64,000 nt of DNA from an uncultured virus (IMG/VR IMGVR_UViG_3300032180_000385) (IMGVR_UViG_3300032180_000385:1-64000); one strand, 5' to 3'; shown: positions 2,602 to 51,560, counted from the first letter of the stretch. Translations and numbers: made by a program. Notes: a model not told the origin generated them from the letters alone.

Positions 2602-2833
2602 CGACCCCCAAAACCCGCGCGACTTCGACGTCGAGATCTGGGACACCGCCTTCACCAGTGGCAAATGGCGATCAGTTGACAGTCAAATTCGGCGGTTTTT
2701 CGCTCTCCCGCTCGACGGCCTGCTTACCAAGACAGAGGCCCAGCGGCTAGCACTAGCCTGCCCCGGACGGACCAGAATCGTACGACGGATCACCGAGGTC
2801 ATCGAAGAGCACGACCCCGCAGAAGACACCTGA
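2591..2833 (+). CDS. hypothetical protein, paralog of 58290-58556
   Basis: FDVEIW...LTKTEAQRLALAC vs YDVEWF...LTLDEAKQLARAC. Confidence 0.6.
   Translation: MKDNDPQNPRDFDVEIWDTAFTSGKWRSVDSQIRRFFALPLDGLLTKTEAQRLALACPGRTRIVRRITEVIEEHDPAEDT
2814..2829 (+). repeat. left 16-bp direct repeat ACCCCGCAGAAGACAC of the TIGR-Tas-like cassette
   Basis: identical to 5246-5261. Confidence 0.9.
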
Positions 2834-2836
2834 GCC

Positions 2837-3026
2837 GGTGGCCCGGTTCATGGGTGAAACGAGAGCCAAAAGTGCTACGGCCGGGCCGCCTTTGACAACT
2901 CCACAGACTTCCCCGCGGGTCCAAGAATGCGACGACAGCCAGAAGTCATACGGCTCGCGGGGAGACAAACGAGCGGCCCGGTCCATGGTCATGACGGTAG
3001 CCACGTAGCAGACGGCCGGGCCGCTC
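2837..3026 (+). ncRNA. TIGR-like stem-loop guide array 1 (3 units)
   Basis: each unit is a GC stem enclosing t(c/t)ca-N9-cg(a/g)nagcca-N9-cgg; spacer pairs tgggtgaaa/aaagtgcta, agaatgcga/gaagtcata, tggtcatga/cgtagcaga. Confidence 0.85.
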
Positions 3027-3049
3027 CTGAACAGAAAAGGGAAAAATAA

Positions 3050-3595
3050 ATGACAGTAAAGACTAAGGCTTTCAAGACCGCTGATGAGTATATTGCCCAG
3101 CGGCTCGACGGCGGCGTTCGTGATCCGGGCGTTATCGCGAAAGAGATGCTCGGCGATCCGGATCTGCGGAGGCTGCTCGTCGCGGTGGTGCGCTCGTACG
3201 TGTCCAACAGGATCCGCAGCCGGGTGCGGGCGATCGAGAACTCGGCCGGGCGGGGGGATGAGGTCCAGGCCCATTACGATAGCCAAAGACGCCACGGCCT
3301 CATCTCCCCCTCTGGTCGGCAAGACCCCGGTCGGCCAATCAACGCCGCTTTGCACCAGCGCGACCTTCTGGGTGAGCGCCTCTCCATCCCGAATCACGGG
3401 TACGTGCTGTACGCCGACCTGACCGTGGAGATGCTGGAACTGCGCATCGAATGGCTGGAGTCGATTAACCGCGGTAACGAACGGTCGATTCGTTACTACC
3501 GCTTGCTTATCGCGGAAATTCAGGCGGCCGGCGTGCAGACCCTGGGTGAGGCGGTAGCGGCCGGCGTCGTGCTCCGCGACGAGGGAGCCGCCTAG
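3050..3595 (+). CDS. unknown 181-aa protein between arrays 1 and 2 (candidate Tas partner)
   Basis: purine-rich RBS AAAGGGAAAAATAA-ATG; ORF exactly fills the gap between the arrays. Confidence 0.75.
   Translation: MTVKTKAFKTADEYIAQRLDGGVRDPGVIAKEMLGDPDLRRLLVAVVRSYVSNRIRSRVRAIENSAGRGDEVQAHYDSQRRHGLISPSGRQDPGRPINAALHQRDLLGERLSIPNHGYVLYADLTVEMLELRIEWLESINRGNERSIRYYRLLIAEIQAAGVQTLGEAVAAGVVLRDEGAA
3252..3309 (+). ncRNA. single TIGR-like unit embedded in frame in the 3050-3595 CDS
   Basis: ggggggatgagg-tcca-ggcccatta-cgatagcca-aagacgcca-cgg-cctcatctcccc; 12-bp stem with one G-U pair. Confidence 0.8.
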
Positions 3596-3599
3596 AGCC

Positions 3600-4046
3600 G
3601 GAGCGGTCCGGTCCATCGGGTGAACGAAAGCCATGGGTCCAGCGGCCGGGTCGCTCCTTAACAACTGAACAGACTTCCCCGCAGGTCCAAAACGCCGACG
3701 ATAGCCATCGCCGTAACGGCTCGCGGAGAACAAGAACAGCCCGGTCCAAGGTGGCCACGAAAGCCATTGAATCTACGGCCGGGCTGACAACTGAACAGAC
3801 TTCCCCGCGGGTCCATTGGTGAAACGACAGCCACACTTCGAACGGCCTGCGGGGAACAAGAACAGCCGGGTCCAACCCCTTTACGACAGCCAATCACCCT
3901 ACGGCTCGGCTGCACAACTCAATAGACTTCCCCGCGGGTCCATCAGCGTGACGATAGCCAGTGAGCGAACGGCCTGCGGGGAACTAAGACGAGCGACCCG
4001 GTCCACCGTTCCTACGATAGCCATGGCTCAAACGGCCGGGTCGCCC
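3600..4046 (+). ncRNA. TIGR-like stem-loop guide array 2 (7 units)
   Basis: spacer pairs tcgggtgaa/tgggtccag, aaacgccga/tcgccgtaa, aggtggcca/ttgaatcta, ttggtgaaa/cacttcgaa, accccttta/atcacccta, tcagcgtga/gtgagcgaa, ccgttccta/tggctcaaa. Confidence 0.88.
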
Positions 4047-4092
4047 CATAACTTAATAACCATCGTTCATGAAACAGGAAAAGGTAATCACG

Positions 4093-4905
4093 ATGAGCAG
4101 GGCATGGGGTAATATCGCTGATCTGCGGATGGCAGCCGAGACGCTGGCCGACGCGAAAAAGGCCAGGATATCCGCTGATAACCGGGTGAAGCGTGGTCGG
4201 ACAGTCGGCTGCCAGCTGGAAGCAGCGGAGATCCTCGACCCGGCGAAATTCCTGGAAGAGCAATACAAGGGCGTGCTCCTTTCTCAATATCAGGCGACGG
4301 TTCCGGAGCACATCAGGAAGTGGGCGGAATGCATTCCCGGCCTGGCCAGCGGCCCGCTGTTCGCCCGCATGCTGGGGGTGATCGGCAACCCGCGGATCGC
4401 CACCCCGTACCGCCGCGAGAAAGAAGACGGCAAGGTCATCCTCGTAGCCGACGGCAAGCCGTATGAGCGCACCGTCCGCCAGCTCTGGCAGTATTGCGGC
4501 TGCGGTGACCCGCGCACCATTCCGACCCGCAGCATACTCGGTGAGAGCCCAACCCAGGAGCAGCTGCTGAGGGGCGGCCAGCGCACCACCATGCTCCCGC
4601 TGCTGTATACGTTCAGCTCGTACCTGGTGCTGCAGCACACCCGGTCGGAGGCCGTCGCTGACAGCAAGTACTACCTCACCTATGTGGGCGCGAAGGCGGA
4701 CTGCGAGCTGCTCGGGAGGGTGCACGAGTTCGAGTGCCGGAACCGGAAGCGCCCGCCGATGGGGCCGAATGGCTGCGGTACGAGCCTGCATCCAGAATGG
4801 GGTGCGCCGGGGTCACCGTGGCGGCCAGGTCACATCAACGCGCACGCTCACCGCCTCGTGTGGAAGGCTTTTCTGAAAGACTTGTGGATTATTTCCGGAG
4901 AGTGA
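4093..4905 (+). CDS. Nop-domain / IS110 C-terminal-like RNA-binding protein without a nuclease domain (TasA-like)
   Basis: N-terminal coiled coil (KARISADNR), IPGLASGPLFARMLGVIG, TVRQLWQYCG and GHINAHAHRLVWKAFLKDLW; no DEDD/RuvC or HNH domain; RBS AGGAAAAGG before ATG 4093 (alternative start 4069). Confidence 0.8.
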   Translation: MSRAWGNIADLRMAAETLADAKKARISADNRVKRGRTVGCQLEAAEILDPAKFLEEQYKGVLLSQYQATVPEHIRKWAECIPGLASGPLFARMLGVIGNPRIATPYRREKEDGKVILVADGKPYERTVRQLWQYCGCGDPRTIPTRSILGESPTQEQLLRGGQRTTMLPLLYTFSSYLVLQHTRSEAVADSKYYLTYVGAKADCELLGRVHEFECRNRKRPPMGPNGCGTSLHPEWGAPGSPWRPGHINAHAHRLVWKAFLKDLWIISGE

Positions 4906-4913
4906 CATGAGCT

Positions 4914-5242
4914 GGGCGGCCCGGTCCAGAGCTGCAACGAAAGCCAAGATCGACACGGCCGGGCCGCCCTTTATAACTACATAAGCTTCCCCGCAGGTCC
5001 AAGCGCTCGACGATAGCCAGAAACCCAACGGCTCGCGGGGGACTAGACGGGAGTGGCTCGGTCCATCGTCATGACGATAGCCAGCCCTCGTACGGCTGGG
5101 CCGCTCCTTGACAACTACACAGATTTCCCTGCGGGTCCAAAAGGGACACGAAAGCCATGGGGAACACGGCTCGCGGGGAACAAGACGAGCGGCCCGGTCC
5201 ATTCAGGAGACGATGGCCATGGAAGGCACGGCCGGGCCGCTT
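4914..5242 (+). ncRNA. TIGR-like stem-loop guide array 3 (5 units)
   Basis: spacer pairs gagctgcaa/agatcgaca, agcgctcga/gaaacccaa, tcgtcatga/gccctcgta, aaagggaca/tggggaaca, ttcaggaga/tggaaggca. Confidence 0.88.
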
Positions 5243-5245
5243 CTT

Positions 5246-5261
5246 ACCCCGCAGAAGACAC
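5246..5261 (+). repeat. right 16-bp direct repeat ACCCCGCAGAAGACAC
   Basis: identical to 2814-2829. Confidence 0.9.
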
Positions 5262-49591: not shown

Positions 49592-49966
49592 TTACATCCC
49601 CATAAAAGACCCGGGGATCTCCTCGTCCTTGCCTTCTGCTTCCCAGGGCACAAGATTGCCGTCGGCTCCCTTGCGGAACCCACTGACAGGGGCGTCCGGG
49701 TTCTCGACCACCATTCCCGCTGCCTCCTGGAAGGCTTTCAGTGCCTTCAGCGCCTCCTTCTCCGGATCGACGCGCTGGCCGATCGTTTCCTCGAACGCTT
49801 CCAGCTGGTCGGCGTCCATGCCGTCCGTGCAGATCGCGTACACCATGTTGAGCAGCTGGCGCGGGGTTAGCGCCTCGATGCCTTTTTCCGTGTGCCGGAG
49901 CCGTTCCCCGTCGAGACGCGCTGAGTGGTGGGCGGCGTAACTGAGGAGCCATCGCGCGGCTTGGTA
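49592..49966 (-). CDS. tail assembly chaperone, frameshifted C-terminal extension
   Basis: -1 frame opens at GGG CGC CCT AC (GRPT to GRPYQAARWLL...) and runs to 49592. Confidence 0.6.
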   Translation of the reverse strand, partial: YQAARWLLSYAAHHSARLDGERLRHTEKGIEALTPRQLLNMVYAICTDGMDADQLEAFEETIGQRVDPEKEALKALKAFQEAAGMVVENPDAPVSGFRKGADGNLVPWEAEGKDEEIPGSFMGM

Positions 49967-50634
49967 GGGCGCCCGGAGACGATCTCCATCACCTGCGAGA
50001 TCACCGGCAGAAGCTCTTCCGCGTCAGCCTTGGTCTCGATGGCATGATTCTCGAAGGCCTGCCAGTCGCCCGTGTCGAACGACTTGCACATGGCCTCCCG
50101 GCCGGCCTTGCAGTGCTCGCAGTTGCCGCATGCCTTCGAGCCCGCATAAATGCAGTCTCGCAACATCATGTAGACCGCTCCCAGGGCGCGCGGGTCGTCG
50201 GATGACATATCCGCCGCGGACGCGTACTTGAGCAGGGGCATCAGGCCGATCTTCTCCGCGATGCGGAACTTCTTCCCGAGCAGCTCGATCGTGTCGTGGT
50301 TCTCGATGACCGCACCCTCGGTGATCATCGGCGCCCCCTCGGCCTTCGCGGCCCTGGCGTGCACGACGGCGAGATCCCGGTCGTCCTCGTTCGAGATGCC
50401 GTTCGCGGCTGCCGTAGCGGCTGCCTGAGGGGGCGTCACCGGTGCGGGCACAGAGGCGGGTGCGGAAGACTCCTCTTCCTCATCATCATCATCGTCGTAG
50501 TCGTCGACCGGAGTCGGCGTAGGGGTAGCGCGTGCGGCTGGGCTCCGGTACGCAGGAGGCGGTGTCGGGGTAGGCACATTGTCGGCTTCATTCCAGTCGA
50601 TCTCGATATCGTAATCGGCTTCCTGAGCAGGCAT
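49867..50634 (-). CDS. tail assembly chaperone
   Basis: between tail tube and tape measure; FRIAEKIGLMPLLKYA; SGRPT. Confidence 0.7.
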   Translation of the reverse strand: MPAQEADYDIEIDWNEADNVPTPTPPPAYRSPAARATPTPTPVDDYDDDDDEEEESSAPASVPAPVTPPQAAATAAANGISNEDDRDLAVVHARAAKAEGAPMITEGAVIENHDTIELLGKKFRIAEKIGLMPLLKYASAADMSSDDPRALGAVYMMLRDCIYAGSKACGNCEHCKAGREAMCKSFDTGDWQAFENHAIETKADAEELLPVISQVMEIVSGRPTKPRDGSSVTPPTTQRVSTGNGSGTRKKASRR

Positions 50635-50730
50635 TTTAACTTCTCTCTATTGTCTGATAGTGTCTGAAAGCGGTCCGGTCCACTTAGGGAACGTGAGCCA
50701 TAGATGCAACGGCCGGATCGCATTTTCTTT

Positions 50731-50788
50731 GAGGAACTCCCCCGGCCAGGACCCTTTCGCAGCCGGGGGAGCTTCTTTCTTGTTTTGT
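50731..50788. terminator. strong hairpin after the tail tube gene
   Basis: gaactcccccggc...gccgggggagcttc; T-rich tail on the + strand. Confidence 0.45.
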
Positions 50789-50811
50789 TACGGATGGTGC
50801 TAGCGATACGG

Positions 50812-51560
50812 TTACGTACCGGAGATGCCCGTGGTGGGATAGCGCATTATCGCGCTTGCTGCGCTGAACGTGCTCTTCATGGAGACCGCTGCCGCAACGC
50901 CGCCGGCGACGGCGTAGTCGGGAAGGATCTTGCCGAAGAAGTACTGGCCTGGCCCGGCTCCCTGCACGCCGACCGTGGACGGGTAGAGGTAAAAGTTCCG
51001 GGGCTGGCCGTCGGTCGCCGCGACGTAGGTCTGCGCAGTGGCAGTGTCGTAGAAGCCGGTAAAGTCACCGGATGCGTCCGGCAGGCCGGCCACCCAGATC
51101 AAGTTAGAGTCTCCCATGGTGGTGACGTCTACCTTGGCGACGGTGAAGTTGAGGCTCCAGTCTGACAGAAACGCCATCGGGCTTGCTGAGTCGGTCGGGT
51201 TTACGCCAATGTAAGCGATCGTTCTGTTACCTCTCGTCCTTTTTACAGGGCGAGCGGGCTGGTCATTTCTGCCAGCCTCTGCATGTCTCCATGCAGTCCG
51301 GACTATACCTTCACCCACAAGGGGTGCCACGTACCTAGTCTCTGAACCATCCCGTCGAGACCTTTCAGTTCAGGCGGGCTCGGCTGCTGATTACCCCTGC
51401 TAATCTCTTTTTGAACCATCGCGCTCGCGTTTTCACGCCACGCTGTGGTGCGATCAGGTGACTCGGGCGTCCCAGCAATTCTCGCAGTTTGCACTGAGTG
51501 ATTGCTCTCTCAGGCGGCCAGTCGACCGTTGCGTCCATGAATTCTCGAGATGGTACTCAT
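50812..51560 (-). CDS. major tail (tube) protein, two exons 51525-51560 and 50812-51219, 147 aa spliced
   Basis: exon 1 MSTISRIHGRNG joins in frame to IAYIGVNP...VDVTTMGD...VAGLPDASG; RBS AGAAGGAG. Confidence 0.88.
51220..51524 (-). ncRNA. group I self-splicing intron (305 nt, no ORF)
   Basis: P GAATTGCTGGGA, Q AATCAGCAG, R TTCAGAGACTA, S AAGGTATAGTCC; exon ends in U paired to G in P1 (cggu-c-gacu-ggccg); intron ends in G. Confidence 0.9.

Follow-up and report, generated by a model that had tools for sequence, protein, structure and literature searches.

Guide RNAs of the box C/D class are known from within host genes, as intron-encoded snoRNAs in eukaryotes and as archaeal C/D sRNA genes that overlap the ends of ORFs. 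Closer to the locus considered here are the TIGR-Tas systems. In-frame tigRNAs have been described inside tas genes, where they occupy disordered regions, and small-RNA sequencing recovered them for BlTasA (Xu et al. 2026, bioRxiv 10.64898/2026.09.09.750476); the same work left open whether tigRNAs are matured by Tas itself, by host RNases, or by "auxiliary factors". Stem-loop arrays together with a nuclease-less TasA are exemplified by PlTasA, from a Peromyscus gut contig (Faure et al. 2025, PMC12045711; Guan et al. 2026, 10.64898/2026.08.11.744272), and stem-loop tigRNAs come off with the stem attached (Faure et al. 2025, PMC12045711). TasA was described as having no clear protein associations save for occasional tasParB operons, TasParB having been called by HHpred (Faure et al. 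2025, PMC12045711).

We analyzed a 64,000-nt stretch of DNA from an uncultured virus (hereafter the window) in which a complete tigRNA unit lies in frame within a small gene, here termed the partner or companion, directly upstream of tas. Like the tas-borne tigRNAs of Xu et al. (the BlTasA wedge loop and others), this is a complete in-frame unit in a gene of the TIGR locus, the ORF of which remains unbroken; it likewise falls in a poorly ordered segment between structured elements, and it raises the same idea, namely a possible link between the maturation of guides and translation. Unlike those examples, the host is a separate upstream gene (3050-3595), tas itself (4093-4905) holds no unit, and the linker units of the family occur in two reading frames and in one to three copies. 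The passages of Xu et al. 2026 (10.64898/2026.09.09.750476) on intragenic or embedded units and on accessory or adjacent genes name no host gene other than tas, and a full-text literature search on tigRNA with accessory gene returned nothing further; supplements or TIGRSafari may already show the companion or the units within it. Tas-borne in-frame tigRNAs are already in print, and what is new here is hosting by a separate, syntenic companion gene. As with box C/D guide RNAs, we are dealing with a two-guide, box C/D-like RNA on the transcript of a protein-coding gene; box C/D RNAs, however, lie in introns or at ORF ends and are not known to be translated in frame in the middle of a protein.

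The array architecture resembles that of PlTasA (Faure et al. 2025, PMC12045711; Guan et al. 2026, 10.64898/2026.08.11.744272) in that it consists of tandem hairpins in which a conserved loop is flanked by two ~9-nt spacers, the stems vary yet always pair, and three sub-arrays are placed around a TasA gene. In contrast to the PlTasA locus, a conserved protein gene that holds a unit here fills the ~600 nt separating sub-array 1 from sub-array 2, and relatives of the window's Tas use dual-repeat arrays with a period of 34 or 42, the clade thereby spanning both architectures. Coordinates of all features are collected in Table 1.

Table 1. Features of the TIGR-TasA cassette and associated elements, in positions of the 64-kb window.
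Feature	Position	Strand	Description
16-nt direct repeat, left copy	2814..2829	+	Perfect repeat ACCCCGCAGAAGACAC; repeat family D7
TIGR sub-array 1	2834..3029	+	3 stem-loop units, stem types A, B, A; matches at 2848, 2921, 2983
Partner gene	3050..3595	+	181 aa; three-helix N-terminal domain ~8-68, linker ~66-100, C-terminal part 110-170
Intragenic tigRNA unit	3252..3309	+	Stem arms 3252-3265 / 3296-3309; core 3265-3297
TIGR sub-array 2	3599..4049	+	7 stem-loop units between partner gene and tas
tas, TasA type	4093..4905	+	270 aa; Nop-like RNA-binding protein without nuclease domain
TIGR sub-array 3	4912..5245	+	5 stem-loop units 3' of tas
16-nt direct repeat, right copy	5246..5261	+	Perfect repeat ACCCCGCAGAAGACAC; repeat family D7
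Solitary tigRNA unit	50666..50726	+	Type-A stem; pattern with 1 mismatch; fold -22.6; covariance model 47.4 bits, E 3.5e-8

The TIGR locus spans 2834-5245 on the plus strand, with 15 intergenic stem-loop units split into three sub-arrays, and the order of the cassette, all on that strand, is sub-array 1, partner, sub-array 2, tas, and sub-array 3. When the 64-kb window was searched with the array pattern CCA-N9-CGANRGCCA-N9-CGG, allowing at most one mismatch, 17 matches were found where 0.10 were expected, and none of 100 dinucleotide-preserving shuffles reached that number. The matches comprise the 15 intergenic units, one at 3265-3297 within ORF 3050-3595, and one standing alone at 50680-50712; 16 units thus fit the pattern within 2848-5231. 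Every unit is surrounded by a self-complementary stem, fold energies for the 15 intergenic units ranging from -15.4 to -33.9, and in the unit alignment GGT.CA, ACG, GCCA, and CGGC are invariant around variable spacers of 8-9 nt. Over the 13-bp helix of the 15 intergenic units, 94.9% of cells are paired and seven of the 13 pairs are altered on both sides; the covariation score of this helix was reached by none of 500 shuffles. The two alternating stem types correspond to repeat families D1 (eight copies) and D2 (six copies), and what the array really repeats is an A+B pair, about 130 nt long. Over window positions 2895-5181, conservation extends to the linkers that separate type-A from type-B units, with ACAACTNNACAGACTT, for example, before each type-B stem. 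A covariance model was trained on the 15 intergenic units only, the intragenic unit being left out; of the 15 units used for training, 13 appear in its output, with 61-71 bits (61.5-68.3 for sub-array 1), including five of the seven in sub-array 2 at E<=1, those at 3732 and 3858 being absent under default filters. One antisense match of the model scored 19.9 bits (E 0.036).

The perfect 16-nt direct repeat brackets the whole TIGR-partner-tas cassette with a spacing of 2432 nt, which suggests that the cassette moved in, or can be mobilised, as one unit; the 16-mer was also found in eight other viral contigs, none related to the locus, and those occurrences were set aside as chance matches. The solitary unit is separated from tas by ~45 kb; it falls in the intergenic stretch that divides the minus-strand ORFs 49867-50634 and 50812-51330, and is followed by a GC hairpin and T-run at 50741-50790. 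A scan with the sigma-70 consensus found no promoter, a result that carries little weight outside a known host. Nor did any of the 17 guides, each queried in four spacer arrangements (68 queries), find a target in the 129-kb record: the best self-match, for a single query, had two mismatches of 18, about 0.4 such hits being estimated by chance, and neither the partner nor tas was matched by a guide at fewer than four mismatches.

The product of ORF 4093-4905 is classed, by its sequence matches, as a TasA-type protein, in agreement with the initial annotation, which had called the system a nuclease-less Tas. It matched NCBIfam NF052498 ("TIGR-Tas system RNA-guided endonuclease", TIGR_Tas_endo) with an E of 4e-14 over model positions 1-213 of 215, at 53.1 bits, a score below the equivalog cut-off of 100, and PHROG 4285 at 5e-16. 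With a profile of 26 family members, the top PDB match was 9MTY_A (E 0.0079), from the TasR structure (Faure et al. 2025, PMC12045711); the 270 aa of the window's protein are collinear with residues 121-295 of TasR, a chain of 331 aa, and so align after the N-terminal part of TasR. No HNH, RuvC, or any Pfam domain was found in Tas or the 26 family members. Homologues numbered 86, and no member of the clade was found in 185,579 species-representative genomes. A protein with the same motifs occurs in Table S1 of Faure et al. 2025 (PMC12045711), a likeness judged by eye only. Several Cys and His residues are invariant or nearly so in the family, namely C-G-C-G-D (135-139) and C215, C228, H233, H247, and H251, accompanied by W236 and W243, in a conserved insertion ahead of the last helix (region 215-251); this set may form a metal site, or may be the counterpart of the C-terminal processing loop of Xu et al.

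ORF 3050-3595 is a real conserved gene, syntenic with tas. Tas relatives led to seven further viral and 24 metagenomic loci; with duplicates dropped (L025, L026, L021, L029, L035, and L037), 15 distinct loci with at least 500 nt upstream of tas were left. The partner HMM was built from the window protein and 23 library homologues, with no locus sequence in it; in 14 of the 15 related loci it detected a same-strand partner homologue directly upstream of tas (E<=2.6e-6 among 2,170 ORFs), co-occurrence being viewed from the tas side only. The exception, L038, gave an E of 0.26, and nothing else in the loci fell below 0.3. A link between homologues and Tas genes, on which the initial annotation had made its reading depend, is therefore observed.

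An exhaustive HMMER search gave 23 partner homologues at E<=1e-3, with lengths of 153-202 aa; a word-indexed search retrieved only the protein itself, and tblastn and megablast against phage records gave no match. In a 36-sequence alignment (A2), the N-terminal and C-terminal domains are conserved and the linker varies in both length and sequence. No column is invariant; P114, T125, and G142 are nearly so, and no others. The AlphaFold2 model made with this alignment (mean pLDDT 88.3, pTM 0.73) has a beta-hairpin and a long helix in its C-terminal part (110-170), and its sole weak stretch is residues 61-100 (block means 67-82), on either side of which the pLDDT is 92 or more. That stretch includes residues 68-87, which are encoded by the tigRNA unit and fall within the length-variable columns 100-165 of the alignment. 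A single-sequence AlphaFold2 prediction was poor (pLDDT 58) and was superseded by the alignment-based model.

In stating that the partner belongs to no recognizable family the initial annotation was correct: Pfam, PHROGs, NCBIfam, PDB sequences, fold searches, and Atlas yielded none, Foldseek against the PDB gave nothing at E<=0.001, and the best VIA-align wide matches, to HTH-like domains of three helices and to lone long helices, reached a Z of 5.0, which is below the level meaningful for helical proteins. Its companion suggestion, that the partner could be a missing effector or processing factor, did not fare as well, synteny being all that speaks for it. Nothing suggests that the partner is an enzyme; the model is not enzyme-like, and the lack of an invariant column speaks against it. 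The architecture instead hints that the partner would most likely be a small dimerising, nucleic-acid-binding adaptor of TasA. Prediction of a complex between Tas and the partner scored 0.01 against a mark of 0.32, a result that bears on binding neither way.

The tasParB-tasA operons (Faure et al. 2025, PMC12045711) offer the nearest parallel in gene order, as there, too, a small gene and tasA share one strand, with arrays upstream, between, and downstream, and for the companion, as for TasParB, dimerisation via the C-terminal part is predicted. Searches directed at ParB were empty: the 36 members of the partner family had no Pfam match of any kind at E<=0.1, PF02195 was absent from the 129-kb record at E<=0.01, and no ParB chains appeared among the PDB profile matches of the partner at E<=10 or in the fold lists. 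Neither "ParB" nor the contig names of the related loci were found in the supplement of Faure et al. 2025 (PMC12045711) as searched. That the partner and TasParB are one and the same protein is possible but doubtful.

The initial annotation had placed a complete unit in frame at 3252-3309, within an intact 181-aa ORF, and had considered its stem to be unlike either intergenic type; both observations hold. The core, CCA-GGCCCATTA-CGATAGCCA-AAGACGCCA-CGG, matches the array pattern without a mismatch (spacer A at 3268-3276, then the loop CGATAGCCA, and spacer B at 3286-3294), and the stem arms pair over 14 bp, G-U pairs included. The unit is in frame with ORF 3050-3595 and contributes the peptide GDEVQAHYDSQRRHGLIS; note that the third reading frame would give CGA-TAG in the loop. 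As a 65-nt fold, it has an MFE of -31.6 kcal/mol (z -3.37), equalled by none of 200 shuffles, and the covariance model recovered it at full length (3251-3311) with 39.6 bits and an E of 1.8e-6. The stem lies outside both repeat families D1 and D2: beyond the common invariant GGTC, it agrees, by eye, with type A at three of nine other positions and with type B at none of nine, and all 13 pairs of the model nevertheless form. Counting against a guide reading, CUU, a motif at tigRNA processing boundaries (Xu et al. 2026, bioRxiv 10.64898/2026.09.09.750476), is absent from both bases of the intragenic stem; it is found at the stem base in 11 of the 15 intergenic units and in the solitary unit, and is lacking in the other four. 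Because stem-loop tigRNAs are released with their stem, the product expected from 3252-3309 would be about 58-65 nt, not the 36-nt RNA from 3262-3297 that had originally been proposed. Among sequencing runs, one DNA holder of this sequence was listed and no RNA holder.

The unit in the window is not the only one of its kind. Twelve units were found in the partner linker, in six of the 15 partner-bearing loci (window included), and in the alignment all 12 fall within the linker's variable columns. At no more than one substitution, there is one in the window, one in L012, two each in L014 and L017, and three in L040; L036 has three tandem 39-nt linker units of its own motif, which recurs between the genes and after tas. 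The conserved scaffold is thus present in homologues, as a guide reading of the segment had implied, and the initial annotation's alternative suggestion, that a tolerant loop can take up units, is well supported by the linker, which is variable both in length and in sequence and has zero to three units in two frames. The linker has no unit in the remaining nine partner-bearing loci, and the partner therefore does not need one. L015 has one candidate linker unit.

With the first conserved ACG as the anchor, the C of that triplet falls on codon position 3 in three loci (the window, L014, and L040) and on codon position 2 in three others (L017, L012, and L036), with the consequence that the conserved nucleotides give unlike peptides according to frame (..YDSQ.. 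versus ..T.A..). Since units recur in one linker but are read in two frames, the sequences argue that it is the RNA motif, and not the peptide, that is conserved there. The multi-unit linker inserts have periods of 42, 42, 42, and 39 nt, each a multiple of three, unlike the intergenic arrays of L017, where the period is 34. In L040, the edge repeats of the three intragenic units are those of the intergenic array, and they are palindromic and perfect; the edge repeat is itself the palindrome GGCGGGCCCGCC. Fold z values were -4.38 for the linker units of L040 and -2.69 for those of L014, whereas those of L017, L012, and L036 did not stand apart from shuffles. Among the 23 homologues available as protein only, four have the unit peptide signature in the linker: that of frame 2 in P0090 and P0099 (two matches versus 0.018 expected), and that of frame 1 in P0095 and P0096 (three matches versus 0.59 expected). 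Reading these signatures as linker units would be suggestive only. In L019 (4001-4069), the partner ORF passes its usual C-terminus and continues in frame through two or three units (peptide PRGDTEAKGDTEAKGDTEASDLTE) to the start of tas. In L027 (1-10819), units are spread over a stretch of more than 10 kb that takes in both flanks of tas, forming at least ten small clusters amid stop-free frames; such frames abound in GC-rich DNA, and units in other ORFs of L027, L013, and L028 are hence uninformative.

Recurrence, the use of two frames, and an intact stem of unique sequence together point to a real guide unit, maintained as RNA in a permissive linker. We therefore consider it probable, short of being confident, that 3252-3309 is a genuine stem-loop TIGR-TasA guide unit lying in frame in the companion's linker, where selection acts on the RNA, and that it is transcribed and processed as a guide, which would couple partner output to that process. 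The targets of selection in the linker would be the motifs on either side of the spacers, together with the central loop and the self-complementary stem, and the linker peptide would be whatever those bases spell in the frame used. The whole plus-strand cassette would be transcribed as a precursor RNA, in which TasA would bind the intragenic hairpin, and the hairpin would be trimmed, like its neighbors, to a stem-bearing guide of ~60 nt. As the unit lies inside the coding sequence, any excision of the guide would sever the partner mRNA; each transcript would then yield either full-length partner or guide, never both, and the output of partner would be coupled to guide maturation.

One alternative is that the unit is a neutral passenger. 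Arrays to either side of the partner would expand and be reshuffled through recombination, and a unit might sometimes land in the tolerant segment and persist there for a time unused, regulating nothing. The distribution of linker units is patchy, at six of 15 loci, and neutral gain and loss fits such a pattern as well as function does; a single subfamily includes L012 with a unit and L023, L019, L013, and L011 without one, and the linker holds anything between 0 and 3 copies. In P0088, the closest protein homologue at 43% identity, the linker is shorter by 13 aa and shows no unit signature. The missing CUU would also suit an unused copy, as would the score of 39.6 bits, compared with 61-71 for the 13 intergenic units listed. 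Against these points, all 15 fixed positions of the intragenic unit are intact, and its 14-bp stem is fully complementary although unrelated in sequence to types A and B. A stem of that sort implies that compensatory changes have maintained it or that it arose very recently, and in the latter case a likeness to A or B would be expected. The intragenic units of L040 have, moreover, kept perfect edge repeats, and the periods of multi-unit inserts are divisible by three even where the intergenic period is 34. On balance, we consider a passenger origin unlikely.

It is also conceivable, but distinctly unlikely, that the unit serves primarily as a dedicated autoregulatory switch, in which binding or processing by Tas cuts or blocks the partner mRNA, partner levels fall as the Tas RNP rises, and any role as a guide is secondary. 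Autoregulation through guide processing was the first inference of the initial annotation. It follows from the sequence that excision from within a coding region must sever the message; units recur in the partner (six of 15 loci) and in none of the 13 tas genes of the clade that were scanned, and the same coupling idea has been raised for tas-embedded units (Xu et al. 2026, bioRxiv 10.64898/2026.09.09.750476). With nine of 15 loci lacking a unit, however, such a circuit is not essential. The spacers vary between loci, like those of ordinary guides, and a pure operator would need neither two intact 9-nt spacers nor the loop. Finally, the notion that ORF 3050-3595 is merely a chance open frame between sub-arrays, and the unit an ordinary intergenic array member, is scarcely credible: spurious ORFs are plentiful in GC-rich DNA, the word-indexed and tblastn searches gave no homologue, and a stem-loop TasA locus with a ~450-nt "intergenic region" between sub-arrays has been described (Faure et al. 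2025, PMC12045711), but an artefact is refuted by the 23 homologues of like length from the exhaustive search, by two flanking domains conserved as protein and confidently folded (pLDDT >90), and by a position and strand upstream of tas that are kept in 14 of 15 related loci.

If the preferred reading, a genuine guide unit in the companion's linker, is correct, guide units extend beyond intergenic arrays and tas, and array finders that mask coding sequence, or search tas alone, will undercount guides. The two-frame pattern would then be a clean natural case of RNA-level selection setting a protein segment. A syntenic, unannotated companion is also a concrete candidate in the questions of how stem-loop tigRNAs mature and what a nuclease-less TasA does in phages. 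One might go further and cast the companion as the auxiliary factor still missing from stem-loop TIGR-TasA, where it would take part in guide maturation or serve as an effector arm, its own mRNA doubling as pre-tigRNA and each transcript being either translated or cut. We regard this extension as quite improbable; were it true, the locus would have a built-in feedback balancing guide supply, TasA, and helper, and would be the first RNA-guided system with guides stored in the reading frame of an accessory gene.

A last observation concerns the Tas clade itself, members of which, at 44-65% identity, come with dual-repeat arrays in some phages and with full stem-loop arrays in others. The period of the arrays is 34 in L012, L017, and L030 and 42 in L014 and L040, and stem-loop arrays with a period of about 55-73 are found in the window, L011, and L032. 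The clade thus looks like a bridge between the two published array architectures.
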